Shown piece by piece: positions 414 through 58,966 of a stretch of DNA of 64,000 nt (its first letter is position 1; the number at the start of each line of letters is the position of its first letter). A program made the translations under genes and the position numbers. Under the pieces are notes generated by a model, which ran no database searches, was not told the origin of the DNA, and saw only the letters and a program-made list of their open reading frames with translations. The stretch spans positions 84,574-148,573 of the forward strand of contig JAUYHB010000006.1 of the NCBI GenBank assembly GCA_030690305.1, in the 5' to 3' direction. The stretch comes from a bacterium (GTDB taxonomy: Bacteria > Patescibacteriota > Minisyncoccia > Phycocordibacterales > JAGLPS01).

Positions 414-434
414 AAATCACTCAGCAACATTTTT

Positions 435-556
435 TACAAAGCGCTCACCTGCTTCCTGCGGCAGGTTCGCTAAACTCGTAAAATTTTTGGCCCAAGGCCA
501 AACCAAGCAAATTTTCCTGCGAACATTGTAAAAAATGTTGTCTCGCTTTAACGGGC
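435..556. repeat. Intergenic repeat element copy A (about 120 nt, second copy at 42748..42866), candidate structured RNA or MITE
   Basis: About 85-90% identity to 42748..42866 in the same orientation. Terminal inverted ends AAAGCG...CGCTTT. Internal hairpins TTTGGCC-caa-GGCCAAA and AACATT-n6-AATGTT. Confidence 0.6.
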
Positions 557-592
557 AGAGGGAAGGGTTTGAGAAAAATCGTAATCCTAAAA

Positions 593-9224: not shown

Positions 9225-10467
9225 TGTATATGGAGAGACCAAACACTTTCTTGTATATCATCATACACTTTTCGGCAGCCTGCTTCCATGTATGTTTGAT
9301 GATTTCCTGGAAACCATTTTCGGAAAGACACGACTTGAGAGATTCATGGGTGAGTACGCATACGATTTTGTTTGCCATTTCATCGACGTCCCAAAAATCA
9401 ACTTTGAGCGCGTGTTTGAGTACTTCCGAAACTCCCGACTGACGAGAAATAATGACGGGGGTACCACTTGCTATAGCCTCAAGAGGAGTGATGCCGAAAG
9501 GTTCCGAAACGGAGGGCATGAGGTAAAGGTCTGCCGCTTTGTACGCCTGTACAAGCTCGTCATTTCGCAAAAATCCCGCAAACAAGACCTTGTCGCTGAT
9601 ACCCAAAAACGCGGCCTGGTTCATGATTTGGCCTTCCATATCCCCCGACCCGGAAATGATAAACGTTACCTTTGGATAATATTCGAGAACCTTTTTTGCG
9701 GCGGCAACGAAATAATCCGGACCTTTTTGTATGGTGATGCGTCCGACAAATAAAACAATTTTATTCCCCGATTCTTTAAGTTTCGCAATTCGGTTTTCCT
9801 CGCCTACGTGCTGGGAAAGGTATTCATCAATATCGATACCGTTGTGAACTACCTCGACTTTTTCTTCGGGTACGCCGTATCGTTTGACGATGATATCCTT
9901 CGTGTAGTTGGACACTGCAATAACGCGGTCGGCGGCGTGCATTCCCTCCCTTTCCACGTCGTAGACAAACTGATTGACGGACCGGCCGCCGGTCCTGTCA
10001 AATTCCGTCGCGTGCACGTGAACGATAAGCGGTTTCCCCGATACTTTTTTCGCTTCCATACCGGCGAGAAACGACAACCAGTCATGGGCGTGGATAACAT
10101 CAAATTGTTCTTTGCGGGCGATTTCGCGTGCGCGTATTGCGTACCGTCTTACTTCCTCAAATAGCGTGTCGCCGTAAAACGCATTATCAATAAATGCCCG
10201 TTCTTTTTTATAGCTGTCGGGATTCGTGTATGGAGAAAGTAGAGACGGGATATTATGGAATACGATATCCGGAGTTTCCACGTCACCGAATATAATGCGC
10301 GCGAATCGGGATGTTGTATCTTTAAGCCGTTTCGGTAGAACAAATGTCACCTTGCTCCCCGATTGAGCCAACGCTTTGGAAAGACCGTAACAGGCAACAC
10401 CCAAACCTCCACTATTGTGAGGTGGGAACTCCCAACCAAACATTAAAATTCGCACTGGTGCATGCAT
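9217..10467 (-). CDS. GT-B glycosyltransferase (GT4/GT5, glycogen/alpha-glucan synthase-like)
   Basis: ILMFGWEFPPHNSGGLG N-terminal motif and a C-terminal EX7E motif (SEPFGITPLEAIASGTPVI). Start taken at MHAPVRIL (the ORF start at 10506 is upstream). Confidence 0.8.
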   Translation of the reverse strand: MHAPVRILMFGWEFPPHNSGGLGVACYGLSKALAQSGSKVTFVLPKRLKDTTSRFARIIFGDVETPDIVFHNIPSLLSPYTNPDSYKKERAFIDNAFYGDTLFEEVRRYAIRAREIARKEQFDVIHAHDWLSFLAGMEAKKVSGKPLIVHVHATEFDRTGGRSVNQFVYDVEREGMHAADRVIAVSNYTKDIIVKRYGVPEEKVEVVHNGIDIDEYLSQHVGEENRIAKLKESGNKIVLFVGRITIQKGPDYFVAAAKKVLEYYPKVTFIISGSGDMEGQIMNQAAFLGISDKVLFAGFLRNDELVQAYKAADLYLMPSVSEPFGITPLEAIASGTPVIISRQSGVSEVLKHALKVDFWDVDEMANKIVCVLTHESLKSCLSENGFQEIIKHTWKQAAEKCMMIYKKVFGLSIYNA

Positions 10468-12251: not shown

Positions 12252-12974
12252 CTATTCCCTTCCTTTCAATTCGAGGTTCCGGGGGATTTTAAGATAATTC
12301 TTTTTTTGAGATTCGGTCATCCGTTCTACCGCGTAACGCAGGGCTGTTCTGGGCATTTGGGAAGCGTGTAGGTTCAGAAATTTTTTTTCCGACACAAGGT
12401 CTCTTTTCCCGACCTCCCGCAACATCCAACCGACGGCTTTATGGATAAGGTCATGCGTATCGCCCAAAAGCATCCGCGCAATTAAAAGCGTTTCTTCAAA
12501 TCGGTTATTTTTTATGAAATAAAACGTTGAAACGATCGCGATACGCCGCTCCCACATGTTTTTTGAACGCGCCAGTTTTTGCAAAATTTTTTTTGGTTTA
12601 CCAGATATATATGCTCCGACAATTTTCTCTGCCGACAAATCGACTAAATCCCAGTTATTAATATGCTTCGTTGAAGAAAGATAGAAATCGTAAATTTTCT
12701 TTTTTTCGCTCTTGCCGCCATTTTTAAAATTTTCCACAAGAATAAGAAGAGCGATGAGCCGTTCCTCATGGATTTTAGATGAAAGAAGTTTTTTTATTTC
12801 GGGGAAAGAAAGGTGGGCGTATTTTTTAGCGAGAGCCCGCGATACCGGTACGGTTATCCCAAGAAATACGTCCCCTTCTCCATATTCGCCCGGTCCCGTT
12901 TTAAAAAAGCCCTGTAAAATTTTTGCTTTCGCGGGATTTTTGAGCTTACGGAGTTCGGCTTTCAATTTATCCAT
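12252..12974 (-). CDS. DNA alkylation repair protein (AlkC/AlkD-like HEAT-repeat glycosylase family)
   Basis: HEAT-like repeats with the WDLVD and DLIHKAVGWMLRE signatures of the DNA_alkylation family. Start trimmed to the ATG (the ORF begins at a TTG). Confidence 0.7.
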   Translation of the reverse strand: MDKLKAELRKLKNPAKAKILQGFFKTGPGEYGEGDVFLGITVPVSRALAKKYAHLSFPEIKKLLSSKIHEERLIALLILVENFKNGGKSEKKKIYDFYLSSTKHINNWDLVDLSAEKIVGAYISGKPKKILQKLARSKNMWERRIAIVSTFYFIKNNRFEETLLIARMLLGDTHDLIHKAVGWMLREVGKRDLVSEKKFLNLHASQMPRTALRYAVERMTESQKKNYLKIPRNLELKGRE

Positions 12975-15197: not shown

Positions 15198-15271
15198 TGC
15201 CGAATCGTCTAATGGTAGGACACATCCCTCTGGAGGATGTTATCTTGGTTCGAGTCCAAGTTCGGCAGCCA
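15198..15271 (+). tRNA. tRNA-Gln (anticodon CTG)
   Basis: Cloverleaf with U1:A72, G73 discriminator and encoded CCA. Anticodon loop CU-CUG-GA. Confidence 0.85.
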
Positions 15272-15326
15272 AGGTTGGAAGTATCGAGGCGACCTAATTT
15301 CCTCGAGAAACCACTTTTTCTGGCAT

Positions 15327-16034
15327 ATGCGTAATGAAAAAATAAATTCAAAGATTATTGCTCTCTGGAATAAGTATTTTAAGAATGATCCAGACGTGTA
15401 TGCGCCGCTTTTCTACGACGAGTTCAGGAAGGGCGGACTGCTGTTCGTCGGGATGAATCCGTCTTTCAGCGTGCGAGGATTCAAAACGATACTTCAGAAC
15501 ACCGAATATAAAGACATGGATCCGTCCACATTCTTTAAGTGGAGCAACATATCCGCGAACCCAGCACTGATCGACGATTGTGTTAAGGTAGAGAACTACG
15601 CGTACGCGAACTACTCGCTCTATTTTGGTCGTCCGGTAGAGATAGCCAAGAAGGTTGGGTTAGATTGGCAACACATCGATCTTTTTCTCTATAAAGAAAC
15701 CGCGCAGAATAACTTCATGGCTCGCATTACGAATAAAGAGAAGCTCAACCAGTTCGCTCTCGATCAGATCGCGCTCTTTGAAGAAGTCCTCACAAAGATT
15801 GAACCATGTTGCGTGGTGGTCACCAACGCGTTCGGATCGGAGTTATTACGGGACCATATCAAGAACGACCTATTGTGGGACGAGGAGTGCGGCTTCCATT
15901 GGTTCACCAAATCGGGCAAGAAAATACCGATGTTCTTTTCGTCAATGCTAAGCGGACAGAGAGCGCTTGATCGTTGGTCATATGAACGTTTGAAGTGGCA
16001 CATCGGGCAGGCAGTAAAAAAACAATTAATATGA
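15327..16034 (+). CDS. Uracil-DNA-glycosylase-superfamily-like protein (SMUG/MUG-like motif GMNPS), function unknown
   Basis: GGLLFVGMNPSFS resembles UDG motif 1 (GINPG/GMNPG). A C-terminal SMLSGQ resembles motif 2. First gene of a tight three-gene cassette, with ATGA overlap to the next gene. Confidence 0.4.
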   Translation: MRNEKINSKIIALWNKYFKNDPDVYAPLFYDEFRKGGLLFVGMNPSFSVRGFKTILQNTEYKDMDPSTFFKWSNISANPALIDDCVKVENYAYANYSLYFGRPVEIAKKVGLDWQHIDLFLYKETAQNNFMARITNKEKLNQFALDQIALFEEVLTKIEPCCVVVTNAFGSELLRDHIKNDLLWDEECGFHWFTKSGKKIPMFFSSMLSGQRALDRWSYERLKWHIGQAVKKQLI

Positions 16035-16762
16035 CGGGCTGGTATTCTATCACTCCCCAATATATAATCATTCAAAATGAAAAAGCGGCTCTCGCTTTGT
16101 TCTCTCCCGAATTTCTCGGGGCATTTGCGGGGGCCTTCTTCGCCTTCCTCTTCGGTGTCATTAGTTACCATCTTATAAAGAGATACGAACGTTTCATTCT
16201 GCATCGTAATGCGCTTGTTGGATTAGAGCGTCTATTGAACGAACACTTAGACATTATTGGCCTTAACAGGGCAACTGCGCTTAGTACTCAGCGCATCCTT
16301 GAAGCCCACCGTCTTACCCACAACCGTTTACTTGAGTTGTCTGTGAGGGAAGGGTTGGACACAGACTTGGGGAACTTGGATATTGCCAATCGGTACTTTA
16401 TCTACACGCGAGGAGTCCACCGAACGAATGTCGATACTCAATCTATGAATTACACTCTGACTAGGTTCGAAGATGTCATGATTGGCGGGAAACCGTTGGA
16501 AGCTGAGAATTGGCACTACATAACGGGTGCTTTCGCGCAGATTCCCGGGCATATGGATAAACTTGAGCGCGAGACAAAAGAAATTCTCTGTATCACTCGC
16601 ATCCACATTGCCCGATTGGCGAGAAAGGGCATCTGGTATGCAAATACACAAAAGGAGTGGAGTGTAGAAGTAACAGACGAGGAACTCAAAAAGGAAGTCA
16701 TGAAACTCGAGGAAGAAATCAGAATGGTTTCTGGCCAGCGACCCTCAATCACTAGGACATAG
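16031..16762 (+). CDS. Single-pass membrane protein with a helical cytoplasmic domain, function unknown
   Basis: TM helix FLGAFAGAFFAFLFGVISYHLI, then 200 aa with no recognisable family. Start overlaps the upstream stop, and the stop abuts the next start. Confidence 0.5.
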   Translation: MTGWYSITPQYIIIQNEKAALALFSPEFLGAFAGAFFAFLFGVISYHLIKRYERFILHRNALVGLERLLNEHLDIIGLNRATALSTQRILEAHRLTHNRLLELSVREGLDTDLGNLDIANRYFIYTRGVHRTNVDTQSMNYTLTRFEDVMIGGKPLEAENWHYITGAFAQIPGHMDKLERETKEILCITRIHIARLARKGIWYANTQKEWSVEVTDEELKKEVMKLEEEIRMVSGQRPSITRT

Positions 16763-17512
16763 ATGGCAAAAAATACTGAAAATAAAAAATGCATTCATTG
16801 TTTGCGAATCCCGCAGGAGATTACATTTGATCACGTAATCCCAAAATCCTGGTATTCGAAGATTACATCTAAGGATGCGCGCAAACCAAAAGCTCCGGCA
16901 TGTTTTGAATGCAATCAAAAATTGGGAAGGCAAGAGAAATTTTTATCCCATATCATGTGGATGTGTATGCCAGAGGCCCATCCTTTACGGGAAGAACTAA
17001 CAGAGAAGGTCTACAGAGCGTGTGGGATGGGACGCGATGGCAAACCTATTCCTGAACTTTCTAGTAAGGAAAGAGATGAACGAATAAAATATGCCAAACG
17101 GTTACTTGCTTCCACACGACCGGGTGATGATATTGAAGAAAAGAATCTTTTTCCCGGTTTTGGATTCCATGCGGGATATCCGAAAGAGATTCAACGCGCT
17201 ACGTTAATACCCGAAAACCTCGTTACTGAGGTTGCTTCAAAGGTTGTTAGAGGGATCGAGTATATTCAAAAAGGAAGCGAGAGATATGTTGAGGCGCCGT
17301 ATCGACTGGATGTGTTCTTTCCAAAGAAGACAACCGACTCTTCTCTTCAGGAAATCCGCGCTAAGTGCAGAGTATTCTCTGATGGCACCAACACGATCCA
17401 GAGAGGAGCTGATCCAGAAAAACCATTGGAACCGATTTACATTATTCGTCTATGGAATCAATGGGAAATTTGGGGTGTCATTATGCATGAGGAACGATAC
17501 AATAAGTTGTGA
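16763..17512 (+). CDS. HNH endonuclease domain protein with C-terminal domain of unknown function
   Basis: N-terminal CIHC...DHVIPKS...CFECNQ matches the HNH pattern (CxxC, DH, N, CxxC). About 190 aa of uncharacterised sequence follows. Confidence 0.65.
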   Translation: MAKNTENKKCIHCLRIPQEITFDHVIPKSWYSKITSKDARKPKAPACFECNQKLGRQEKFLSHIMWMCMPEAHPLREELTEKVYRACGMGRDGKPIPELSSKERDERIKYAKRLLASTRPGDDIEEKNLFPGFGFHAGYPKEIQRATLIPENLVTEVASKVVRGIEYIQKGSERYVEAPYRLDVFFPKKTTDSSLQEIRAKCRVFSDGTNTIQRGADPEKPLEPIYIIRLWNQWEIWGVIMHEERYNKL

Positions 17513-25229: not shown

Positions 25230-25350
25230 AAGATATTAGGGGGTTTTCCGGTTCTCCACAGTTTTTTCCCTACAAATCCGATATAATTGACAATACCGTC
25301 AGTCTGTTTATCAATTGTTAGGCTAATCGGTTTTCATCATTAAATTGGAA

Positions 25351-28176
25351 ATGAAAAAACTTTTATTACAGACACTTTTAATAGCAAGTGGTTTCTTTTT
25401 GGTGTCGGTAGACGCAACCGCGGCAACATACTACGTAAGAACGGACGGAGGCACGGCGACACAGTGTAGTGGCCTTGCAGATGCGGCGTATTCTGGAAGC
25501 GGGACAAACCAAAGTTGCGCTTTTAACCACCCTAACTGGGCCCTTTCTATTGTAGGAGGTAACCCGACCAAGCTCCAGGGCGGGGATACTCTCATTATTG
25601 ACGGCTCGAATGGAGCCCAATATATGATGGGTTGGGGGTCACCCAATATTCCGAGCACTAGCAACTGCTATTCTGCCTGGGCTTATGATTGCGTTCAGCG
25701 TCCAGTTCCTTCAGGCCCCAGTGCCTCCCAACCAACACGAATTTTAGGGAAGGGCTGGGATAGTGGCTGTGCCGCTCCCCCACAACTCTGGGGAACTCAG
25801 CGAGTGAGTTATATTTTAAACCTCCAAGGAAGTGACAACGTCCAAATGCAATGTCTTGAGATTACTGACCATTCTAACTGTATTGAATTTGGCCCGACAA
25901 ATGCCTGTAATCGAAGTACTTATCCGTTTGGAGAATGGGCAGGGACCGGTATTAAAGCATCCGACAGCGATAATGTTTTGATTAAAAATCTCAATATTCA
26001 CGGGCTTCGGGCAGGTGTGCATGCTGGGCGTCTTTCTAATTGGACAATTGAAAATACCACTATCGCCAATAATTCCTTTGTCGGATGGGACGGAGATATC
26101 GGAGCAAATAATTCTTATAACACCGGAAACATAATTTTTCGAAATACCAAGATTCTCTATTCCGGTTGTGGAGAAACGTATCCCGGCAAACAGCCCTATA
26201 GTTGTTATAGCCAAAGCCAGGGGGGTTATGGGGATGGTATCGGAACTCACTTAACGGGAGGAGCGTGGGTTTTTGAAAATGTTGACATCAGTCACAATGT
26301 TTCTGATGGCCTTGACCTCCTTTATGGTGATGGCACGGGAAGTGTTACAATCCAACGTTCACGTTTTGAAGGAAATGCGGGAAATCAGGTGAAGGCTACC
26401 TCCCCCGTAACAATTGAAAACTCCGTTATCATTGGCAATTGTGGATATTTCAGCGGTCAAAGCTTTACCTCAACTAAAAATATAAGTGGCGCAAACGCCG
26501 GTTTCGACAGCTGTCGGGCAGCCGGGAATAGCATTTCGCTTAGTTATGCGAAACCAGGTACTCAGCATTCAATTTATAATTCAACTATTACAGGAAATGG
26601 TGATGTGCTTGTGCTCACAGGCGGAAGCGGGTGCAACGGAAGTGAGAAAGTCATTTCAAGAAATAATATTTTTGTGGGCGGGCCTCAGTTTTTTCCCGGA
26701 GACACATCTGATCTTTATTACGCGGCTGGAACAGGAGGAAACGGTGACGGAGCTTGTGGCGCAGTAACCCTTGATAATGATTACTCTGTTATTTGGGGCA
26801 CTAAAGACGGCGCAGCAGATTGTACTGGTAAAACCAATCTCTTCTGTCAAGACCCTAAATTCGTATCTTCATTTGTTCAAAACTTTAAAGGATTACTCAC
26901 TAACGTAGCCATTCAGGCTGTAAGTCCTGCCGTTAACAAAGCAACTGTGCTTGCGGGGAAATCATCACTTGATTTCAACTCTTTTGCTCGTGGAACCAGT
27001 TGGGATATTGGGGCACTTGAGTATGCTTCTGTCTCTTCCACTCCGACTCCAGTTCCTACACCAACGCCTACACCTACCCCAGCACCTACACCGACCCCAA
27101 CGCCAACACCCGTACTTGATACGACGGTTCCTGTTATTTCCTCTTTTGACGTCCAGCCTCGAACTACGACCACGGGCGCTGTAACTGCAACATTTTCTGT
27201 CACCGATACCGGTGGATCCTACTTGGCTTCCGCCAAGCTATATAAAGCATTGGATAATGGTTCTACTTGCTCCTCAAGCAATAAAACAGGTTGCAACTGG
27301 GTTAGTGCTGGTTCCCTTTCCGCTCCTGCTTCTATAAATTCCTGGAGCAGTACAATGACTGATACTATCTCGTCTGCCGGAACATATTGGTATGGTCTGC
27401 ATGTTCTAGATAATGCGGGTAATGACGGAAATGAACCCGCAGTCATACAAGTTGTAAGACAAAATCCAGTTCCTACACCAACGCCGGCTCCGACACCTAC
27501 TCCAACGCCTGCCCCTGCTCCAGCACCCACCCCTGAAACAAAATTTGTTGCGGGAGATAGGGTACAGGTTGCTAATGGCCCCCTCAACGTACGAGCAAGT
27601 GGCTTTATTGGCGCTTCCCTCCTGGGCGTTCAACACGTAGGGGCATTGGGTATTGTAATTGGAGGCCCGGCCTCGGCTAACGGCTATCGTTGGTGGAATA
27701 TAAATTACGATGAAGGTATTGATGGGTGGTCCGCTGAAGACTACCTTACAAAATTTGTTGTTCAAACACCTACTCCACTTCCGACGCCAACTCAAACGCC
27801 GGCCCCTATTGATACTTCTTTAACCAACCTATACGGCATTACAACTCAAATTGAAACATTGATAGCCCAGCTTAAGGCTTCAGGAGTTGCGGCGCGTTCA
27901 AACAGCGAACAATACATCGGTTTCGTACCCTTAAGCAGTATGAGAAGTTTAAGCAGTTCTTCAATAGGGTTTGATGTTTTTAAACTGCAATACTTCCTTA
28001 TAACACAGGATAAGGGTGTAGCGACTCAGAATCTCAAGGCTACCGGAGCAACAGGATATTTCGGTTCCGTGACTAAAGCCGCACTTCTTGAATGGCAAAA
28101 GAGCGTGGGAATCAGTCCTGCCGACGGGTACTTTGGACCGCGAACAAAGACGTATCTTAAATCGATCGGTTTGTAG
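25351..28176 (+). CDS. Large secreted cell-surface protein: right-handed beta-helix (pectate-lyase-like) domain, Pro/Thr linkers, Ig-like domain, SH3b-like domain and C-terminal peptidoglycan-binding (PG_binding_1-like) domain
   Basis: Signal peptide, then tandem NxxIxN/IxGN PbH1-like repeats (IKNLNIHG, IENTTIANN, FRNTKIL, FENVDISHN, IENSVIIGN). Three (P-T/A)n linkers, VQVANGPLNVRASGFIG...YRWWNINY (SH3b-like), and a C-terminal YFGSVTKAALLEWQKSVGISPADGYFGPRT (PG-binding). The ORF begins at a TTG, so the first ATG is used. Confidence 0.65.
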   Translation: MKKLLLQTLLIASGFFLVSVDATAATYYVRTDGGTATQCSGLADAAYSGSGTNQSCAFNHPNWALSIVGGNPTKLQGGDTLIIDGSNGAQYMMGWGSPNIPSTSNCYSAWAYDCVQRPVPSGPSASQPTRILGKGWDSGCAAPPQLWGTQRVSYILNLQGSDNVQMQCLEITDHSNCIEFGPTNACNRSTYPFGEWAGTGIKASDSDNVLIKNLNIHGLRAGVHAGRLSNWTIENTTIANNSFVGWDGDIGANNSYNTGNIIFRNTKILYSGCGETYPGKQPYSCYSQSQGGYGDGIGTHLTGGAWVFENVDISHNVSDGLDLLYGDGTGSVTIQRSRFEGNAGNQVKATSPVTIENSVIIGNCGYFSGQSFTSTKNISGANAGFDSCRAAGNSISLSYAKPGTQHSIYNSTITGNGDVLVLTGGSGCNGSEKVISRNNIFVGGPQFFPGDTSDLYYAAGTGGNGDGACGAVTLDNDYSVIWGTKDGAADCTGKTNLFCQDPKFVSSFVQNFKGLLTNVAIQAVSPAVNKATVLAGKSSLDFNSFARGTSWDIGALEYASVSSTPTPVPTPTPTPTPAPTPTPTPTPVLDTTVPVISSFDVQPRTTTTGAVTATFSVTDTGGSYLASAKLYKALDNGSTCSSSNKTGCNWVSAGSLSAPASINSWSSTMTDTISSAGTYWYGLHVLDNAGNDGNEPAVIQVVRQNPVPTPTPAPTPTPTPAPAPAPTPETKFVAGDRVQVANGPLNVRASGFIGASLLGVQHVGALGIVIGGPASANGYRWWNINYDEGIDGWSAEDYLTKFVVQTPTPLPTPTQTPAPIDTSLTNLYGITTQIETLIAQLKASGVAARSNSEQYIGFVPLSSMRSLSSSSIGFDVFKLQYFLITQDKGVATQNLKATGATGYFGSVTKAALLEWQKSVGISPADGYFGPRTKTYLKSIGL
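27040..27115 (+). repeat. Low-complexity CC(A/G)AC(A/G)CC codon repeat encoding a PT(A)-linker. Similar tracts at 27469..27535 and 27775..27805
   Basis: Direct inspection. It generates spurious antisense ORFs (26913..27203, 27219..27587). Confidence 0.8.
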
Positions 28177-37896: not shown

Positions 37897-38140
37897 TTCT
37901 TTCGTGATATATTTCGCCCATTATCCGAGAGACAATCCCCGACCAGGCGGATTCTCCACGGACAGGTCGCGGGATGGAGCAACAGTAGCTCGAAAGGCTC
38001 ATAACCTTTAGACCCTGGTGCAAATCCAGGTCCCGCAACACTTCAACTCGCTTCGCTCGTTCAGTGCGGGCAAGGCGAAGTGTCCCGAGCATAGTCGAGG
38101 GACAAGCAAAAATCCACGCAAAGAGTGCGTGGATTTTGGT
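37897..38140 (+). ncRNA. Candidate structured non-coding RNA (about 200 nt, GC-rich) ending in an intrinsic terminator. Identity unknown
   Basis: Locally GC-rich versus its surroundings. Multiple stems (ATCCCCGACC/GGTCGCGGGAT, CCCTGG/CCAGG, CCCGCA/TGCGGG). A terminal AAAATCCACGCA-aagag-TGCGTGGATTTT hairpin carries T-tracts. The six-frame ORFs here are low-complexity. Confidence 0.3.
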
Positions 38141-38209: not shown

Positions 38210-38881
38210 ATGGCGAAATCTAAAGAAAAGTTATTTGCACACACGTTACGTAGGGAAGGAAAGAGTATTCTTTATATTTCACAACAACTTAACATAGCTA
38301 AAAGCACAGTAAGTGTTTGGTGCAAAGACATTACACTCACCTCTTTTCAGAAGTCACAATTACACAAAAATTCAATCATCGCGGGACATAAAGGAAGAAT
38401 GATTGGCGCAATGCAAAATCATCTCAAAAAATTACAGACCATAGAAACATACCGAATCGAGGCAGAGAAAAATGTTGGCAGATTGTCAGCTCGTGAACAA
38501 TTGCTATTAGGAACAGCCCTGTATTGGGCTGAAGGAGGGAGAAAAAGTTCTGGATTTTCTTTTGTAAATTCTGACCCAAACATGATAGCATTCATCAGTA
38601 AGTGGCTCCAGGGAAGTTTTCAGATACAAAAAGAAGATTTTATACCTAGAATTTATATAAATGAGCTTCACAAACCCCGAGCAGAAAAAATATTGAAATT
38701 TTGGTCTGCTCTGCTACAATTACCCAGAAATCAATTCCGTCGTATTTCTTTTATCAAAACCAAGCAGAAAAAGATGTATGAAAATTATGACAATTATTAT
38801 GGTATGCTGGCTCTAAAAATCAGAAGAAGTACCAATTTGAAATACAAAGTGATGGGATTGATAGGAGCAATTAAAAATTAA
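38210..38881 (+). CDS. Free-standing HTH + LAGLIDADG-like (homing-endonuclease-like) protein
   Basis: N-terminal HTH (GKSILYISQQLNIAKSTVSVWCKDI). Central LLLGTALYWAEGGRK plus NSDPNMIAFISKWL resembles the LAGLIDADG helix and following strand (compare I-DmoI GLYVAEGDK...LEIVSRWLN). Confidence 0.5.
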   Translation: MAKSKEKLFAHTLRREGKSILYISQQLNIAKSTVSVWCKDITLTSFQKSQLHKNSIIAGHKGRMIGAMQNHLKKLQTIETYRIEAEKNVGRLSAREQLLLGTALYWAEGGRKSSGFSFVNSDPNMIAFISKWLQGSFQIQKEDFIPRIYINELHKPRAEKILKFWSALLQLPRNQFRRISFIKTKQKKMYENYDNYYGMLALKIRRSTNLKYKVMGLIGAIKN

Positions 38882-38885
38882 ACAC

Positions 38886-38960
38886 GCCGACGTAGCTCAG
38901 TGGTAGAGCACTTCACTCATAAAGAAGCGGTCGCAGGTTCAATCCCTGCCGTCGGCACCA
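38886..38960 (+). tRNA. tRNA-Met (anticodon CAT, elongator-type G1:C72; could also be a lysidine tRNA-Ile2)
   Basis: Cloverleaf with loop CTCATAA and encoded CCA. Confidence 0.85.
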
Positions 38961-42688: not shown

Positions 42689-42747
42689 AGGCTTAAGTGT
42701 ACGGAGAAAAAATACCCATGTAAAGAACCGCTCAATAATATTTCCTG

Positions 42748-42866
42748 CAAAGCGCTCACCTGCTTCCAGCGATAGGTTCGCTAAACTCAGAAAATTTTTG
42801 GCTCAAAGCCAAACCGAGCAAATTTTCCTGCGAACATTGCAGAAAATATTGTTTCGCTTTGACGGG
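42748..42866. repeat. Intergenic repeat element copy B (homolog of 435..556)
   Basis: Same orientation and about 85-90% identity. The hairpin TTTGGCT-caa-AGCCAAA shows a compensatory C>T/G>A change relative to copy A. Confidence 0.6.
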
Positions 42867-42913
42867 AAGAAGAAGATAACAACACCCTTAGTTTATGGAG
42901 AGTTTTCTGGTAT

Positions 42914-42953
42914 AAAAAAGGGCGGTCTTTTTTAAAAAGACCGCCCGGTTGGG
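42914..42953 (-). terminator. Rho-independent terminator downstream of plsC (minus strand)
   Basis: GGGCGGTC-t6a5-GACCGCCC followed by T6 on the minus strand. Confidence 0.65.
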
Positions 42954-43216
42954 TTTATGCGTTACTTACTTTGGTGTAACGCGTGGCACCCAAAACCAAT
43001 TAAAAGGTTTTACAGTGAGGAAGGGTTATGTGTTTTTTTATTCGCCGGCCACCCGGCTACTTCGGATTGCCACCTGATGTACTGCAGAACTTGTGCATCC
43101 GCATCCTCCTTTCTCTGTCTTTTGCAGTAAAATCTAGAAGAGACTATACCACAGAAATTAAATTTTAATCAATCCTGTGTTATGCGCTTTTCTTAATACC
43201 ACTCTCTTTCATGCGC

Positions 43217-43930: not shown

Positions 43931-47815
<3,885 letters not shown>

Positions 47816-47819
<4 letters not shown>

Positions 47820-48421
47820 AGGACGGTGTTATAAATATTTGTTTTCAGAGTAAATGTTTTTGTTTGCAGGAAGGAATTTTTCCATGAAATCGTTACAGCC
47901 ACTACCGCTTCGTCTTCGGTCGCGCCAGTACTCAAAGGAACAATTACCACCGTCCTCGTAAACCTGCTATCGGTCCACTGCGCACCCTCGTCATATCCAT
48001 AGGCTCCGGTCGTGCTATTAAACTTGAGGGGGGGACACCCCGATGAAGCGCACGCGAGAGCTTGCAACGGACCGGTGTGTGTATACGTAGTATCGATGGC
48101 GCATCCGTCGCTACTTGTACAGGCTGAGTCGAGTTCCTCGAGCCACTCTACCCCGCTACTTGGATTTAAAACCGAGTCGAGGGTGTTTTGTTTCTTTTTT
48201 GCAACAACATATTCAACGGCATCCTGAGCAAGATAGGCTGCGATAACCTGGTCTCGTGCAAGGGCGGTAATACCGATGCCTTGGGAGGCAATATAGAGCG
48301 GTGCGGTGATGGCCCCCATAAGAACCGTTATGGCGACGAGTGTCTCAACAAGAGTAAATCCGTCGGAAACTTTCTTTTGAAAGTTTTGGTGGATAAGTCC
48401 TTTTTTTGCGTGATGTATCAT
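47816..48421 (-). CDS. Minor pilin/pseudopilin (prepilin-type N-terminal cleavage/methylation domain)
   Basis: KKGLIHQNFQKKVSDGFTLVETLVAI class-III signal. Confidence 0.7.
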
Positions 48422-48427
48422 ACGTGT

Positions 48428-49024
48428 TTATAAGTCGGTAAAACGTTGTGTAATGGTCGTTTGGATGTTAAAGACCGCTTTTTCCTCGCCTTTTATCCTC
48501 GTTTCCGCGCGCAATATCATGAGTACTTTCGACTGGATACCGTCACGGGGGTCGGCACCGCTTATGTAAAATTTTAAATCATTTATTGTAACGGCAGGGT
48601 CGGTAAGCGTAATGAACGATGTGCCACCATCAACAGATTTATGTACAGCGTTTCCGTTTAAGCGGTAAATAACCTGGTCGGAAGGTGACAATACATCCCC
48701 CGTCGGCGGTTCAAACGCAATATATGTTCCGTCAAGACAGTTACGGAAAGTTCCTATACCATTATTTCCCGCCGCGATTTGTGCCGTTAAGTCGGATTCG
48801 GAACCGCAGTTGTACAGCCTCCCGTCACGGGCACTGCGTACGATTTCTTCAATCGAAAAATCAAGGTTGTCGACAATTGCTCTTGTTGCCTGGGCTCTTC
48901 GGTGCGCATCGGTGATAAGAAATAGGGCGGTTATGGCAATAAAAGCGACAATCATGAAAATTCCCAAAGAAACAAGCGTCTCTACAAGCGTGTACCCTTT
49001 ATTTGTTTGAGAAAATTTCGTCAT
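48428..49024 (-). CDS. Minor pilin/pseudopilin
   Basis: NKGYTLVETLVSLGIFMIV N-terminal methylation motif. Confidence 0.7.
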   Translation of the reverse strand: MTKFSQTNKGYTLVETLVSLGIFMIVAFIAITALFLITDAHRRAQATRAIVDNLDFSIEEIVRSARDGRLYNCGSESDLTAQIAAGNNGIGTFRNCLDGTYIAFEPPTGDVLSPSDQVIYRLNGNAVHKSVDGGTSFITLTDPAVTINDLKFYISGADPRDGIQSKVLMILRAETRIKGEEKAVFNIQTTITQRFTDL

Positions 49025-49042
49025 TTTAATTTCAGTATATCA

Positions 49043-49657
49043 TTACTCGCAATCGGCACTTCTTGTAATGTACATGCGCCCGCTCTCCCACACACAAACA
49101 AGACGACGCGCTTCACCGCGCGGAGAATAGATTTCAAAAGAAGCGCCTATCGGGTTGACTCCGGCCACACTCGCCTCTATCTGCGGAGAAAGTGAGCGAG
49201 GAAACGTAACCGTCACGGAAGGAGCGGTCTGAGGAAAACCGAGCACCTCCGTAAAAAAAACATTGAGTAGGCCGCTCTGTGTATCATATGTTTGCAATTC
49301 TTCACCCGTATCGTATTGCCCATCCTGGTTTGCATCATTGAAGATAAGATACTCCGTTGAATTATCGGTAAAAAATATCCCATACCAGCCTGAAAAATCG
49401 TCAGAGCCCGGCTGTATTTCCTTTACCGAAGTCGCATAGACCTGGGCTTCTCTCAGAGTCAGAATAATTTCGTTTGCAAATTTGTCGGCAAGAATATTTT
49501 CATCGTAACTGCGGTAATTAAACAAGACAACCCCAATGACAAAAGTCATGATGGCGATGCTTACCAAAAGCTCCGTGAGCGTAAACCCGCTTGAAACTCT
49601 CTTTTGAAAATTTTGGTGGGTAAAACCTCGTTGTTGGAAAAATTGAGATATTTTCAT
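49043..49657 (-). CDS. Minor pilin/pseudopilin
   Basis: SSGFTLTELLVSIAIM N-terminal methylation motif. Confidence 0.7.
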   Translation of the reverse strand: MKISQFFQQRGFTHQNFQKRVSSGFTLTELLVSIAIMTFVIGVVLFNYRSYDENILADKFANEIILTLREAQVYATSVKEIQPGSDDFSGWYGIFFTDNSTEYLIFNDANQDGQYDTGEELQTYDTQSGLLNVFFTEVLGFPQTAPSVTVTFPRSLSPQIEASVAGVNPIGASFEIYSPRGEARRLVCVWESGRMYITRSADCE

Positions 49658-50454
49658 TACACGTTGAGAAAAAAGGCGCTTACCGAAACATTAAAGAAAA
49701 AAACAAGCACCATACCAAGGATTAAAAATGGGCCGAAAGGAATTTCACTTTTCATTGTAAGCTTTTTACCGCCGAAGGACCAGCTGGGTATTCGTTGGAG
49801 AAGAATCAACAAAAGACTGACCGCGGCGCCAATCCAAAATGAGAGGACAATCGCATCAAAACCTCCCCGAAGACCGAGAAAAAAACCGATGCCAAGAGCG
49901 AGTTTCCCGTCGCCCAATCCCATCCACTCACCTTTTGATAAAAACCACAGAAGAAAAAAGGGTGTAAAAAAAATCGGACCAGCCAACAGATACGGGATAT
50001 GCCCCGCAAACCCGTCAACAAATACGCCCCAGACAACATCCCCAAGAGAAAGAAAAATAAACAAAAAAACAAGAAGGTCGGGAATAATCATGTGCTTAAA
50101 GTCATAGACGGTAATAGCAAGCAGGATACTCCATATGACGGAATAAAAGACAAAGGCGAAGGAAAAGCCGTATGTCATAAACAAGAGCAGAAAAAAAAGG
50201 CCCGACAAGAATTCAACCGTCGGATACTGGAAAGAAATCGGAGCTCGACAGTTTTGGCATTTCCCCTTCAGAACAAAGAAACTTGCAATCGGTATGAGCT
50301 CAAGGGGTGAAAGCGTTTTACCGCATTGAGGACAATGGGACCTTCCTAGAATCGATTCCTTTCCATAACGCGCGATAACAACATTTAAAAAACTGCCGAT
50401 GATTGTCCCGAAAATAAAAACAAAAAAATAAAGAAGGGATTGCGAAGGCAGCAT
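49657..50454 (-). CDS. pilD: Prepilin peptidase (A24 family)
   Basis: N-terminal CPxC...CxxC zinc-binding region and TM helices with the conserved Asp pair. Confidence 0.85.
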   Translation of the reverse strand: MLPSQSLLYFFVFIFGTIIGSFLNVVIARYGKESILGRSHCPQCGKTLSPLELIPIASFFVLKGKCQNCRAPISFQYPTVEFLSGLFFLLLFMTYGFSFAFVFYSVIWSILLAITVYDFKHMIIPDLLVFLFIFLSLGDVVWGVFVDGFAGHIPYLLAGPIFFTPFFLLWFLSKGEWMGLGDGKLALGIGFFLGLRGGFDAIVLSFWIGAAVSLLLILLQRIPSWSFGGKKLTMKSEIPFGPFLILGMVLVFFFNVSVSAFFLNV

Positions 50455-50476
50455 ACGCTCTTATCGGTTAAAAAAT

Positions 50477-50968
50477 TTAATTACAAGCAAGATCGTTTGC
50501 GTTTGTCAGCGCCGCGGTACCCGCGCCACTCACAGCCGTGTAGGGTGTGGCACCACCGCCTTGTGTGCTTCTTGAGACTCCGGTACTGTCGACACACCAT
50601 GCACCTCCTGAACGAAGCGGGGCTGCCGCTGCCCAGTTGTTTGCCGCACCGGATGCCGGTTTGCCACAAACGTCAGAGGTTTCATTGCCCGCCCCGGCAA
50701 AACTCGCGGCATTAAGGGCAAGCATTACGGTTTGATTTTGGGTAACGCTGTTTGCCGCACACACTGCGTCGTAGTCGCCGTCAGTGTCGTAGATAAGTTC
50801 TGCTTGAGAACGCACTCCGGCAAGATTTTCTTTCACAGCGGCATCATACCCACGGACACGCGCGGCATTAAGGCTTGCCAAAACAATTGACGACAAAAGG
50901 CTGATGATTGAAATCACGACCAAAAGCTCGATAAGCGTAAATCCGGTTTCGTGTTTATTTGTATTCAT
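50477..50968 (-). CDS. Type IV major pilin, paralog 1
   Basis: GFTLIELLVVISIISLL leader/N-terminal helix. C-terminal Cys pair. Confidence 0.8.
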   Translation of the reverse strand: MNTNKHETGFTLIELLVVISIISLLSSIVLASLNAARVRGYDAAVKENLAGVRSQAELIYDTDGDYDAVCAANSVTQNQTVMLALNAASFAGAGNETSDVCGKPASGAANNWAAAAPLRSGGAWCVDSTGVSRSTQGGGATPYTAVSGAGTAALTNANDLACN

Positions 50969-51073
50969 ACACTTTTAAACCCCGCGCAAATTCCACTACA
51001 CCCATTATACCTCCCGTAAAGGAAAACAAAAACCACCGCTTACGCGGTGGTTTTTGTTTATGAGATCTAAAAT

Positions 51074-51556
51074 TTAGTTACAAGCGACGTCGTTTGCATC
51101 AGTTAAAGCCGGTGTAGCTCCTGAAGTCACGCCCGTGTACGCTGTACCGCTTGAGTTCGCCAAACGGGAAACACCCGTTGAGTCGACACACCATGCACCT
51201 CCTGAACGAAGCGGGGCTGCCGCTGCCCAGTTGTTTGCCGCACCGGATGCCGGCGCACCGCAAACATCTGAAGTGGTGTCACCTGCTCCTGCTGAACTTG
51301 CCGCGTTTAGGGCGTTGAGAACTGTTGTGTTCTGTGTAACGCTGTTTGCCGCACACACTGCGTCGTAGTCGCCGTCAGTGTCGTAGATAAGTTCTGCTTG
51401 AGCGCGGATACCGTTAAGGTTTGCCTTCACAGCCGCGTCATTACCCTTGATACGAGCCTGGTTGAGACTTGCCAAAACAACGGAAGAAAGTATACCGATG
51501 ATGGCAATAACAACCAAGAGTTCGATAAGTGTAAAACCTTTGTTTTTCTGTGACAT
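51074..51556 (-). CDS. Type IV major pilin, paralog 2
   Basis: GFTLIELLVVIAIIGIL. The central region (about 200 nt) is nearly identical to paralog 1. Confidence 0.8.
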   Translation of the reverse strand: MSQKNKGFTLIELLVVIAIIGILSSVVLASLNQARIKGNDAAVKANLNGIRAQAELIYDTDGDYDAVCAANSVTQNTTVLNALNAASSAGAGDTTSDVCGAPASGAANNWAAAAPLRSGGAWCVDSTGVSRLANSSGTAYTGVTSGATPALTDANDVACN

Positions 51557-51731
51557 TGTATAAATGATTTCTTAATAAACTTTTATTTCGACCGGCCCTC
51601 TCGCGAGACGCCGCTTTTTAAAAAAAGCTTTGTGCATTCATTATATAACTATATGGATAAAGGAAAAAGGCCTTTGTTGATATCTCGATATTACTCGATA
51701 TCAATCCTGAGTGGAGTCGAAGGACTGACAA

Positions 51732-52934
51732 CTAGGAAAGCGTTGCGACGTCGTAAATAGGTATGAGAACAGCAGCCAAAAGGATACCCACTCCGACACC
51801 CAAAACAACAACCATAAGAGGTTCAATAAGACTAATGAGAGTATCGACGGCATTTGTCACCTCGCGTTGGTAGAACTTGGCCATCGTGTTTAAAATATTG
51901 CCCAATTCTCCAGTCTCTTCACCCACCTTCACCATCTGCACCATAATCGTGGGTACTTCGGAGTAATTAACAAGGGATGCGGAAAAAACACTCCCTCCTT
52001 TGACCGCCTCAAGGCTTTCAGCCAATATTTTTCGGTAGAGAGCGCTCCCTACAACTGATGAGGTGACCTCTATCGCGCGAAGCATAGGAATACCCGAGGC
52101 AATCATCGTGCTCATGTTGTCAGCGACCCGCGAGAGAAACAGTTTTTTGTACAAATCACCGAGATAGGGGACGTTTAACCGGAACCTGTCAAATGCCAAA
52201 GCACCTTCGGGAGTTTGTATGTATTTCCCCAAGAAAAAACCTCCCACAATAAGAAAGACCAAGAGAAAAATTCCGTAATGTATGAAAAAGTCGCTCGTCC
52301 ATATGACAAGTTTGGTATAAATCGGCAATTCCCTCCCCGATTCAATGAGAATGGCGGTTATTTTGGGAATTATCATGGTAAGCATTAAAGACATAACAGC
52401 TACAAAAACCGCTATGACAAAGGCGGGGTAAATAAGAGCCCCCCGAACTTTTGAGGCGACTTCGTACGTTCGGTCAAGATAATCGGCCAAATAATTGAAT
52501 ATTTCGTCAAGCCGCCCCGATTCTTCTCCGGAACGGACCATGTTAACGTAAAAATCGGAAAAAACATCGGGATGTTTTGCAAGTGATTGAGATATGGAAC
52601 TTCCCGACTGCAGGTCATTCGCGACCTGGTCGAGAGTTTCCCGCAAAATTTTGTTCTCCGCCTCGTTGGCAAGAAGTTTAAAAATTCGGAGGGCTGGTAC
52701 TTTTGCCTCAAACAGCGTCGACATTTGCCGTGACAGGATGACGATGTCTCGGGCGGATACATAGTGAAAAGATGAAAACCATCCCAATGATTTTCTTTCT
52801 TCAATCGGGACAATGGATGATAGGACAACACCCTGGTTTTGCAGAGAATTAATGGCCGCATCAATATTGATGGACTCGATTGTCCCTTTTCGCTCCTCCC
52901 CCGCTTTGTTTACGCCTTGATAACTAAATAACAT
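51732..52934 (-). CDS. pilC: Type IV pilus assembly platform protein PilC (GspF family)
   Basis: Two T2SSF repeats, three TM helices, about 400 aa. Confidence 0.9.
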   Translation of the reverse strand: MLFSYQGVNKAGEERKGTIESINIDAAINSLQNQGVVLSSIVPIEERKSLGWFSSFHYVSARDIVILSRQMSTLFEAKVPALRIFKLLANEAENKILRETLDQVANDLQSGSSISQSLAKHPDVFSDFYVNMVRSGEESGRLDEIFNYLADYLDRTYEVASKVRGALIYPAFVIAVFVAVMSLMLTMIIPKITAILIESGRELPIYTKLVIWTSDFFIHYGIFLLVFLIVGGFFLGKYIQTPEGALAFDRFRLNVPYLGDLYKKLFLSRVADNMSTMIASGIPMLRAIEVTSSVVGSALYRKILAESLEAVKGGSVFSASLVNYSEVPTIMVQMVKVGEETGELGNILNTMAKFYQREVTNAVDTLISLIEPLMVVVLGVGVGILLAAVLIPIYDVATLS

Positions 52935-52940
52935 ATGTGT

Positions 52941-54002
52941 CTAGAGCATTCTCTCAAGAATCTTTTGGTTAACCGCATGCAGAAAAGCATTTTCAACAGT
53001 AATATCGCCTTTACGGACAAGGTCCGCGAGACATCGGTTAAGGTCAATCATTCCTTCCTGTGAGCTTGTTTCAATGACAGTGCTGATTTCGTGTGTTCGT
53101 CCTTCGCGAATCAGGTTTGAGACGGCACTGTTTGAAATAAGCAGTTCGTACGCCGGCACAAGACCTCCGGAAATACGGGGAATGAGACGCTGCGAAAAAA
53201 TACCGATAAGACTTCCCGAAAGCTGAGTCCGAATTTGGTCCTGTTGTTGGGCCGGGAATGAGTCGATGATTCGGTCAATCGTCTGGGAAGCGGTATTGGT
53301 ATGAAGTGTTGAGAAAACAAGGTGTCCGGTTTCCGCCGCGGTAACCGCCGTCGACATTGTTTCCGGGTCACGCATTTCACCTATCATCAGCACGTCAACA
53401 TCCTGACGAAAAACGCTATGAAGCGCGGTATGGAAACTTCGCGTGTCATATTTGACTTCTCGCTGGTCAATAATTGATTTTTTGGGTTCAAAAACGTACT
53501 CAATTGGGTCTTCAACGGTAATAATGTGCTCAAGACGCGAAGTATTTATCATATCGATAAGTGTTGCCAATGTCGTACTCTTTCCTTGCCCCGTTGGTCC
53601 GACAACAAGAAAGAATCCCTGTTGCTTTCGTACAAACAATTCAAGGGATTGCGGCAAACCAAGTTCTTCAAGACTGCGGATTTGTCTCGGGATAAGCCGG
53701 AGTGCGATGCTTATTTTCCCCTGCTGGTAAAAAGCGTTGCCTCGGAAACGGGCTTTTTCTTTAAACACATACGCAAAGTCCACTTCTCTTTTCTCCGTGA
53801 GTACTTGGCTTTGCTCGGCGGTTAGAATTATCTGCATGAATCCGGTGATGTCAGCCCTTGTAAGCGGAGTTTTTTTGACAAGCGGAATAAGAAATCCGCC
53901 GACACGGAATGTCGGGTGGCGGCCTTCGGATAAATGAAGGTCGGAACCATCCTCGTTTATGATGGTTTCAAAAAGTTCTTCAAGCTCTTTCTTATAGTCC
54001 AT
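52941..54002 (-). CDS. pilT: Type IV pilus retraction ATPase PilT
   Basis: Walker A GPTGQGKST, Asp box, His box, and AIRNLIRE-like motif (AVSNLIREGRTHEI). Confidence 0.9.
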   Translation of the reverse strand: MDYKKELEELFETIINEDGSDLHLSEGRHPTFRVGGFLIPLVKKTPLTRADITGFMQIILTAEQSQVLTEKREVDFAYVFKEKARFRGNAFYQQGKISIALRLIPRQIRSLEELGLPQSLELFVRKQQGFFLVVGPTGQGKSTTLATLIDMINTSRLEHIITVEDPIEYVFEPKKSIIDQREVKYDTRSFHTALHSVFRQDVDVLMIGEMRDPETMSTAVTAAETGHLVFSTLHTNTASQTIDRIIDSFPAQQQDQIRTQLSGSLIGIFSQRLIPRISGGLVPAYELLISNSAVSNLIREGRTHEISTVIETSSQEGMIDLNRCLADLVRKGDITVENAFLHAVNQKILERML

Positions 54003-54018
54003 CGTTTAAAAAGATTAA

Positions 54019-54414
54019 TTACCTGTCCTTGGCTTTAACAATCTTGAGTACCTCCTCTACGACTTCCGAAGGAATCGTCGTCGCTTTGACAATGTATCCG
54101 TCGGCACCGAGCGTCTTTGCTTCGGAAACATCACTTTCCCCTCCCTGATTGGTAAGCATGACAACCGCCGCATGCGGAGCAAGATTTTCTTTTTTGACTG
54201 TTCTCAAAAGTTCTTTTCCATCAATTGTCGGCATAATGATGTCGAGAAGGAGGGCGTCGGGATTAAACCCACTGCGGAGCTGGGCGAGTGCTTCTGTCCC
54301 CCCTGGCGCAGTGCTTACATCGAAACCGTTTTTCCCGAATTTCATGGAATACATGTTCAGGAGAAACTTATCATCGTCAACTATTAAGATTTTATATTTT
54401 TTCCCGTTTTCCAT
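54019..54414 (-). CDS. Stand-alone response regulator receiver domain (CheY/PilH-like)
   Basis: DD...D57-like (LLLDIIMP)...T...K receiver signature. Embedded in the pilus operon. Confidence 0.85.
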   Translation of the reverse strand: MENGKKYKILIVDDDKFLLNMYSMKFGKNGFDVSTAPGGTEALAQLRSGFNPDALLLDIIMPTIDGKELLRTVKKENLAPHAAVVMLTNQGGESDVSEAKTLGADGYIVKATTIPSEVVEEVLKIVKAKDR

Positions 54415-54498
54415 TAAGAAGTATACAGATATGTGCGTCTATATTTCCCCTTTAAAAAACGCGCGAATCCACCATTAACTATATCACATTGTACTCTC

Positions 54499-56217: not shown

Positions 56218-56256
56218 AAAGGTTAATAAAAACCGATTACGTTTTTAAAAAATAAA

Positions 56257-56553: not shown

Positions 56554-56562
56554 AGCCTTTGG

Positions 56563-57111: not shown

Positions 57112-57117
57112 GGCGTT

Positions 57118-57765: not shown

Positions 57766-57798
57766 ACTACTTCTCTAGTATATCACGCACTAAAGATG

Positions 57799-58920: not shown

Positions 58921-58966
58921 TTCGCTATAATCTTCTAGTATAACATAATGATGAGCCATTTTTCCC

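Follow-up and report, generated by a model that had tools for sequence, protein, structure and literature searches.

The 64,000-nucleotide (nt) stretch of Patescibacteriota DNA studied here (the window; GenBank assembly GCA_030690305.1, contig JAUYHB010000006.1) carries two copies, A and B, of a structured repeat that is about 145-160 nt long. On balance, and at somewhat better than even confidence, we suggest that this repeat is a non-autonomous, structured insertion element, similar to REPINs and to miniature inverted-repeat transposable elements (MITEs), which joins the 3' untranslated region (UTR) of the gene that it lands behind. No gene is carried by the element; thus, it is non-autonomous. 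Six full copies are present in three genomes or assemblies, with covariance-model scores of 157-171 bits, and the family is known from a small groundwater clade of Paceibacteria-type Patescibacteria. The element corresponds to no RNA family that has been described.

Copies A and B are both intergenic and have the same orientation, as the original prediction, made from the window alone, had noticed for a repeat of about 120 nt. In a blastn comparison, 437-559 aligns with 42748-42870 at 88.6% identity over 123 nt (E 3.6e-39), and a repeat search of the window extends the similarity to 412-559 and 42723-42870 (84% over 148 nt). Copy A is found between the stop codon of a major facilitator superfamily (MFS) transporter gene fragment (411-413) and a convergent gene for a protein of 128 amino acids (aa) (593-979, - strand). 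Copy B has an intrinsic terminator of the - strand (42920-42946) on one side and, on the other, gatC (start 42688, - strand) with its promoter. The nhmmer match for copy A covers 420-564, and no third copy was detected on either strand of the 64-kb window by nhmmer --max. A further copy, F, belongs to the same genome and lies directly after recG, about 2.7 kb past the right end of the window (L089:12161-12301). The contig JAXMJZ010000017.1 (GCA_034375565.1), of a metagenome-assembled genome (MAG) named 'Patescibacteria group bacterium', is 100% identical to the window over 20 kb, and a window position equals the position in that contig minus 33255. Three copies (A, B and F) are thus present in 79.5 kb of contig from the window genome, all on the + strand, and no copy is present in the 9.4 kb that precede the window on its left side. 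GC skew is weakly negative on the + strand over most of the window, and with n=3 + strand copies this allows no firm inference about the lagging strand.

The other copies come from searches beyond the window. An exact-pattern scan of 185,579 species genomes gave 23 matches, only two of which have the whole element around them; these are copies C (L022:3276-3415) and D (L023:6061-5919), both of the groundwater MAG H32-bin035. The same kind of scan of metagenome contigs gave one new copy, E, in a contig from Hainich well H51 (L025:329-186). Exact-pattern scans cannot pick up diverged members such as the L093 element described below, and there are one or two diverged copies beyond the six canonical ones. 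Apart from the element itself, the genomes that carry these copies have no nucleotide similarity to the window. The view that A and B belong to a conserved family and are not a one-off duplication is therefore borne out, since the wider search added C, D, E and F to the two copies first seen. The canonical copies do not cluster by genome: pairwise differences are 22 for A-B and 13 for each of F-B, F-C and D-E, and F is the closest to all others. Contigs assembled from short reads (Logan) end inside the element or a diverged variant in four cases, namely L090 (7115), L099 (1722), L091 (5614) and L094 (11854). This is as expected for a repeat, and assembly may have been interrupted by other, nearly identical copies located elsewhere in these genomes. 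Scans of IMG/VR with three patterns gave chance matches only, and none of the phage and plasmid sequences searched by blastn matched the element. In Rfam 15, only tRNAs pass the gathering threshold in the window, the best sub-threshold match over copy A reaches 16 bits against a cut-off of 100, and no match overlaps copies C, E or the L093 variant. A literature search on such repeats in Patescibacteria, or the Candidate Phyla Radiation (CPR), found nothing relevant.

The six copies align over about 141 positions, with a mean column identity of 92%. RNAalifold predicts a consensus fold of three helices for them, in which a closing stem, P1, of 17-19 bp encloses the hairpins P2 and P3 (Table 1). 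Standard pairs fill 96.9% of the cells of this consensus structure. Changes on both sides are found in 7 of the 44 pairs, compared with 2.2 +/- 1.2 in column shuffles (none of the 500 reaches 7) and with 0-1 when the partners are slid by 1-3 columns. Five of the 19 pairs of P1 have changed on both sides across the copies, and P2 has a both-side change in copy C, which reads AUCUGC/GCAGAU. The top pair of P3 is U-A in four copies; A has C-G there, and F has a C.A mismatch. This is the compensatory swap in the central hairpin that had first drawn attention to the repeat, and it is confirmed here: A reads TTTGGCC-CAA-GGCCAAA (486-502) and B reads TTTGGCT-CAA-AGCCAAA (42797-42813), with F half-changed (GGCC/AGCC). 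The additional copies bring further structure-preserving substitutions. One extra nucleotide is present in each P1 arm of copies D and E, matched between the two arms, and in D it makes an added G-C pair. The P1 arms have 17 variable columns out of 44, compared with 19 out of 87 in the interior, and the tail is also variable. For the two copies in the window, the + strand folds better than its shuffles (z -3.9 and -3.7), and the folding of the - strand is less clear (z -1.9 and -2.3).

The ends of the element differ in character. In copy A numbering, homology extends from about 417 to at least 557. The 5' end is fixed and reads CCR-CTCAAC... (CTCAGC in copy A), and about 6 nt of the element lie outside the inverted repeat at this end, compared with about 25 conserved nt at the 3' end. 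The tail after P1 has a conserved order, UCGCUUUAAC followed by purine-rich GGAAGAAG, and is kept to about the end of the latter in all six copies, beyond which they diverge. The further tail of A shows a weak similarity to the flank of F, which is not significant (p about 0.06). AAAGCG and CGCTTT, which the original prediction took for inverted ends, do not hold that role, because AAAGCG (438-443) reaches from the end of the P1 5' arm into the base of P2, CGCTTT (544-549) lies within the 3' tail, the closing helix is 423-439/526-542, and copy E has an uncompensated CGCTCA. The pairings AAAGCG/CGCTTT and GTTCGC/GCGAAC were both rejected on account of uncompensated variants in C and E. A pseudoknot of GCUAAAC with the 3' tail was likewise rejected, as it is broken in E without compensation.

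In three relatives (L029, L030 and L031), whose GatA proteins are 85, 80 and 75% identical to that of the window, the order is plsC, a conserved stretch of about 270 nt, the terminator, gatC and gatA, where enough of the contig is available. In all three, the spacer that separates the terminator from the gatC -10 box has an uninterrupted ...CAAGG|(G/T)CTTGCTC..., and copy B is absent from it in the MAFFT alignment. By this comparison, copy B is an insertion. Its ends are uncertain by about 12 nt because the -35 region of the relatives aligns with either flank. The terminator is conserved in the relatives and is therefore not part of the repeat. The relatives have TTGCTC as the gatC -35 box, equally far from TACACT. 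One alignment makes TGTAAAGAACCG (reverse complement TTTACA), at the 5' end of copy B, the gatC -35 box in the window, 17 nt from TACACT. Of the label 'sRNA/MITE' in the original prediction, the mobile part is thus backed by the empty sites for B; the element is not of the type with terminal inverted repeats (TIRs), and an independent small RNA (sRNA) is not supported.

The 3' side of recG gives a second set of sites with and without the element. RecG always ends in ...(I/V)HFE-stop in this clade, and the gene was ancestrally followed by the promoter of tRNA-Ile(UAU). A canonical element lies 6 nt past the recG stop codon in the window genome (F) and in H32-bin035 (C). These two copies differ at 13 of 141 positions, and the two RecG proteins are 75.5% identical. 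A diverged element is found at the same offset in L093 (and in L092 and L094; GCA_023137185.1). It shares the start of the canonical copies (CCG-YUC) and has a perfect 19-bp P1, a shorter interior and, after the stem, UCRCUYUAA as in the canonical copies; the model scores it at 28 bits only with the filters off, and its fold has a z of -4.0. In L091, the 53 nt up to the contig end start with CCGCTCAA at this offset and are then unlike the canonical element. The site is empty in L095-97, L100 and L101. A neighbour-joining tree of RecG places the window genome and L091 as sisters (87%), with H32-bin035 outside (75%), and groups L093 with the empty L095 (73%). Occupancy and subtype are thus incongruent with the RecG tree. 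Such a pattern speaks for a preferred target at which insertion or replacement has occurred repeatedly, and against a single ancient insertion with steady divergence. Past the diverged element of L093 (about 12282-12320) there is an extra hairpin of about 28 nt, CCCTCC-AAGAAACA-GGGGGG, which is absent from the empty site of L095, the nearest relative of L093, and is probably a second small insertion in the same spacer.

The placement of the copies relative to genes is also regular. At MFS, recG and greA, which are independent loci, the CTCAAC motif begins exactly 6 nt past the end of a co-oriented gene, counted from its stop codon, and four of the six copies (A, C, D and F) start at this distance. 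The 6-nt spacing is seen at recG in F, C, L091 and L093 and at greA in D, which is placed ahead of the terminator of greA itself. By eye, the consensus is a stop codon followed by RRNCCR. The 5' flanks differ (AAAAAT, AAGAAC, AGGGAC, AAAGGG, AAAGGT and TAAGAG). An element placed in this way would be transcribed as the 3' UTR of the gene ahead of it, and has no room for its own promoter. Promoter and terminator scans found neither a sigma-70-like promoter nor an intrinsic terminator consensus on the + strand at A or B. Upstream of B and E there is no co-oriented gene, although a TAA stands 7 nt ahead of B.

The element does not code for protein. Indels of 1 nt in the P2 loop and of 1-2 nt in the P3 loop break every reading frame, and copy E is without the only recurrent ATG. 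A six-frame translation of the element was compared with 5.8 billion proteins, and none of the 8000 candidates scored. The most conserved block does read ATG TTC GCA GGA AAA TTT GC..., that is MFAGKFAWFGF..., on the - strand (520-470 of the window), and this ATG with its hydrophobic, aromatic-rich frame recurs in five copies, which could point to a small peptide of the type I toxin kind or to a decayed gene fragment. We consider this highly improbable, since the frame has no Shine-Dalgarno sequence upstream, has ATA in place of ATG in copy E, varies from 17 to 31 aa in length and is shifted by the loop indels, and the protein search was empty.

How such an element would move can be suggested from its architecture. 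The compensated stem, the conserved asymmetric interior, the fixed 5' end and the ill-defined 3' end favour a single-stranded intermediate over a DDE transposase that binds TIRs. We suggest that the element would spread through a single-stranded intermediate whose fold matters, and not through a TIR-binding DDE transposase. The intermediate could be single-stranded DNA handled by an enzyme of the HUH/Y1 type, as for REPINs or IS200-type systems, or it could be an RNA copy. After insertion, the element would persist because a stable hairpin past a stop codon would be harmless or mildly useful, for example by protecting the 3' end of the mRNA or by insulating transcription.

REPINs have been described mainly from Proteobacteria. 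They are hairpin-forming, non-autonomous and extragenic, and compensatory changes are common in them (PMC3116915). REPINs are the nearest analogue of the element, whose hairpin is also kept by compensatory changes (seven pairs). They resemble it in being non-coding, extragenic and about 100-150 nt long, in forming a long hairpin in single-stranded DNA or mRNA, and in persisting in lineages, often at the 3' ends of genes (PMC3116915). However, REPINs are symmetric, with two conserved REP ends and a free spacer, whereas the element has variable arms and a conserved asymmetric interior. Neither of its arms is a palindrome by itself, the interior is better conserved than the arms, and it has two further hairpins, a conserved unpaired 3' tail and a low copy number. 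No RAYT gene is present in about 80 kb of precomputed Pfam annotation around the copies. MITEs of the Correia, ERIC and RUP types are intergenic repeats of 100-160 bp that are co-transcribed, fold through their inverted repeats and can affect mRNA stability or promoters. The element is similar to them in that copy B abuts, and may supply, the gatC -35 box. It differs in that it lacks the conserved, true TIRs of those MITEs, and that no fixed TA or short duplication like theirs could be made out.

Several observations weigh against an insertion element. No transposase, reverse transcriptase or Y1/HUH gene appears in the same Pfam annotation, whose roughly 80 kb surround A, B and F, and a scan of ten neighbouring proteins found none of these three either. 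The only selfish-looking genes near the copies are an HNH gene (16763-17512) and a 223-aa helix-turn-helix (HTH) gene (38210-38881), and neither is consistently linked to the element. There is no clean target-site duplication, and no single rule fits all copies. TAA or TAG stands on both sides of B, C and D as a candidate duplication only, and AAAAATC(R) stands on both sides of copy A. A perfect 22-bp direct repeat, GAGAAAATCCATTTTGAGTAGG, flanks copy C (L022 3252-3273 and 3432-3453) and is made up of the last six recG codons together with the stop and 1 nt. A target duplication, gene conversion or an older duplication could each account for it, and it may be unrelated to the insertion. In the empty sites, the end of recG is already similar to the tRNA promoter region, the counterpart around F matches at about 14 of 22 positions by eye, and the comparison of the C flank with the empty L095 site is not significant (p about 0.09). 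Only six canonical copies are known, at about three per 80 kb, plus one or two diverged ones, which makes for a thin body of evidence. A functional RNA inherited by vertical descent would fit the conserved interior as well, and likewise the position after recG that two genomes 75% apart have in common. Template switching during replication can 'correct' long quasi-palindromes and so give double changes in P1 without selection. Since such correction can mimic covariation, the covariation is not proof of selection on RNA. The earlier claim that the structure is under selection therefore stands in so far as both-side changes exceed the controls, and falls short as proof of selection on RNA. Finally, wobble pairs do not identify the folded strand: there are four G.U cells on the + strand, a count that leaves out one doubtful loop-closing pair, against seven A.C or C.A cells that would be G.U on the - strand, so that G.U wobbles are no marker of + strand folding.

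Among the alternatives, it is possible rather than probable that the element is first of all a functional structured RNA, either a cis-acting module of the 3' UTR or an sRNA derived from it, which is kept by selection and occasionally duplicated. Candidate roles would be protection of the 3' end, termination or insulation, an RNase III processing site or an sRNA precursor, and such roles are compatible with insertion. An interior that is more conserved than the covarying stem is the classic pattern of an RNA. The better folding of the + strand, the position of four copies just past a co-oriented stop codon, and the close similarity of C and F in the same place after recG, though their RecG proteins have diverged so far, are in line with it. 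However, B and E have no co-oriented gene upstream and B is antisense to all of its surroundings. Neither a promoter or terminator consensus (A and B) nor an Rfam match was obtained, and the flanking genes are functionally unrelated (MFS, recG, greA, gatC and KH-domain). In addition, the occupancy of the recG site is off the host tree, and the close relatives are without copy B and have no visible replacement. Another reading, which we regard as unlikely, is a mobile structured RNA, that is a module of the recG 3' UTR copied through RNA or another single-stranded intermediate, much like a retroposon of the short interspersed element (SINE) kind in ultra-small CPR bacteria. Insertion would then occur a few bases past stop codons in purine-rich sequence, with little or no target duplication, and would leave a fixed 5' end and a ragged, purine-rich 3' end. 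The stop-codon site of recG would be a recurrent target, occupied independently by different subtypes. The element is indeed similar to eukaryotic SINE-like retroposed RNAs and to 3' transduction in its fixed 5' end, its purine-rich 3' end of uncertain length and its possible short duplication. Copies may also carry flank from a source locus, though the flank similarities are not significant (p 0.06-0.09). Unlike for SINEs, there is no reverse transcriptase in the 80 kb around the copies, we know of no SINE-like retroposed element in bacteria, and the comparison serves as a lead only.

A classical MITE, which would be a deletion derivative of an insertion sequence (IS) with a DDE transposase, moving as double-stranded DNA through its TIRs and leaving a fixed target-site duplication, is distinctly unlikely. 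Its small size, its non-coding and intergenic nature, the insertion polymorphism, the inverted repeat of 17-22 bp and the possible 3-bp TAA/TAG duplication at B, C and D would all suit such an element. Yet the inverted repeat is subterminal and asymmetric, given the unequal lengths outside it, and its arms are the most variable part and are compensated, which is unexpected for a TIR bound by a protein. With the stem arms the most variable and the interior the most conserved, the element is not a TIR-type MITE. No parent IS was present among the few loci from the two exact-pattern scans, where every copy was short, nor in the phage and plasmid collections. The attC sites of integrons are conserved in stem structure more than in sequence, lie just past the stop codon in the orientation of the gene and act in single-stranded form. 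That the element is such a recombination site, a folded single strand at the 3' end of a gene cassette, is very unlikely. It also starts just past stop codons in gene orientation and has an imperfect long hairpin with a variable apical structure, and GCTCAAC in four of the six copies fits the R'' box RYYYAAC. The box test largely refutes this reading: the partner box is GTTTCGC (GTTGTCT in A) and not GTTRRRY, so that the R' box is missing, RYYYAAC is absent from copy A and from L093, and L093 has neither box. Unlike in attC sites, the sequence is conserved for about 25 nt past the stem, which at B is also shorter than the DNA inserted there. The neighbours are housekeeping genes in mixed orientation with no cassette array, and there is no integrase nearby.

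Two further candidates were tried and rejected. The non-coding RNA of a retron (msr-msd) was dismissed because no reverse transcriptase lies beside any copy, the neighbours being the 128-aa gene of unknown function, gatC, tRNA-Ile, an HTH gene and mraZ. An IS200/IS605-derived PATE, which would sit 3' of a fixed tetra- or pentanucleotide and have a small subterminal hairpin of its own at each end, was dismissed because the 5' flanks differ, the 3' tail has no hairpin and one long stem spans the element.

Table 1. Positions in the window of the two copies, their predicted helices and the adjoining features
Feature	Position	Strand	Basis and remarks
MFS transporter gene fragment, stop codon TAA	411..413	+	ORF 6-413; Pfam MFS_1
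Copy A	417..557	+	family-model match, 141 positions; cmsearch model R1, 160.9 bits, E 2.9e-35
P1 5' arm, copy A	423..439	+	pairs with 526-542; RNAalifold consensus
Hairpin P2, copy A	440..471	+	base AGC/GCU, then ACCUGCU/GGCAGGU; consensus structure
Hairpin P3, copy A	478..517	+	lower stem GUAAAAUUU/AAAUUUUCC; upper stem UUGGCC/GGCCAA; internal loop
P1 3' arm, copy A	526..542	+	RNAalifold consensus
3' tail, copy A	543..580	+	unpaired UCGCUUUAAC, then purine-rich GGGCAGAGGGAAGGG...; 3' limit ill-defined
gatC promoter-like site	42696..42724	-	TTTACA-17-TACACT; abuts or lies partly within the 5' end of copy B; promoter scan
DNA extra at copy B, outer limits	42719..42885	+	about 145-157 nt inserted, each end +/- about 12 nt; MAFFT
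Copy B	42728..42868	+	family-model match; cmsearch R1, 157.7 bits, E 1.6e-34
P1 5' arm, copy B	42734..42750	+	pairs with 42837-42853
Hairpin P3, copy B	42789..42828	+	contains UUUGGCU-CAA-AGCCAAA at 42797-42813
P1 3' arm, copy B	42837..42853	+	pairs with 42734-42750
Intrinsic terminator, upstream - strand unit	42920..42946	-	terminator scan

Several other features of the window and of its relatives were noted. Between plsC and the terminator upstream of gatC, a stretch of about 220-270 nt (42950-43172, - strand) is conserved in L029 and L031. It has a promoter-like TTGATT-18-TATAGT (43172-43143), a GGAGG box, a hairpin-rich tail and a short open reading frame (ORF) that ends in ...FCSTSGGNPK* (...HFCSTAGGNPK* and ...ITSAGGIPE* in the relatives). 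No Rfam family matches this stretch, which may represent a small protein or a leader peptide whose 3' part is structured. In L031, the relative with the 75% identical GatA (Hainich well H32), a gene for an 87-aa GIY-YIG endonuclease is present between gatC and gatA (9732-9995), and a second GIY-YIG gene and a LAGLIDADG-like gene are found within 7 kb. Free-standing endonucleases of the homing type seem to be common in this clade.

The 249-aa product of the HNH gene mentioned above (16763-17512, + strand) matches the endonuclease family HNH_5 weakly (E 6e-05, below the Pfam cut-off). The gene is preceded by two ORFs without a Pfam family (15237-16034 and 15995-16762) and by tRNA-Gln (15198-15271), and the region may be a small island of foreign genes. 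The 223-aa protein with an N-terminal HTH (38210-38881, + strand) belongs to no Pfam family, and its gene lies between two tRNA-Met genes (37968-38039 and 38886-38960). Over 45 aa, the N-terminus of this protein shares 38% identity with the product of a truncated HTH gene after copy C (L022 3527-3703), and the protein may represent a family of selfish or homing-type genes of these genomes. Two other repeats are present in the window. The stretches 50574-50873 and 51168-51467 are 78% identical over 300 nt and belong to adjacent tandem paralogues of N-methyl, type IV pilin-like genes on the - strand (50477-50968 and 51074-51556), inside a cluster that resembles type IV pilus and type II secretion systems (about 45984-59013). 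At 27048-27539, repeats of proline and threonine codons, ACACCNACNCC..., occur in a 943-aa ORF (25345-28176) for a large, secreted-looking protein; these appear to be a low-complexity linker and unrelated to the element.

The genomes of Patescibacteria are tiny and gene-dense, and they are thought to hold few repeats. A structured repeat that is insertion-polymorphic and lands precisely after stop codons would provide a new handle on genome dynamics and strain typing in uncultured groundwater bacteria. On the practical side, the element breaks the short-read contigs of these MAGs. Its architecture is the reverse of what is seen in TIR-type MITEs and REPINs. Should a dedicated enzyme exist for its recognition, this enzyme may therefore read a folded single strand in a way not yet described. 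The element would also bear on how non-autonomous elements persist in minimal genomes, and on the biology of 3' UTRs in a lineage with almost no non-coding RNA known.

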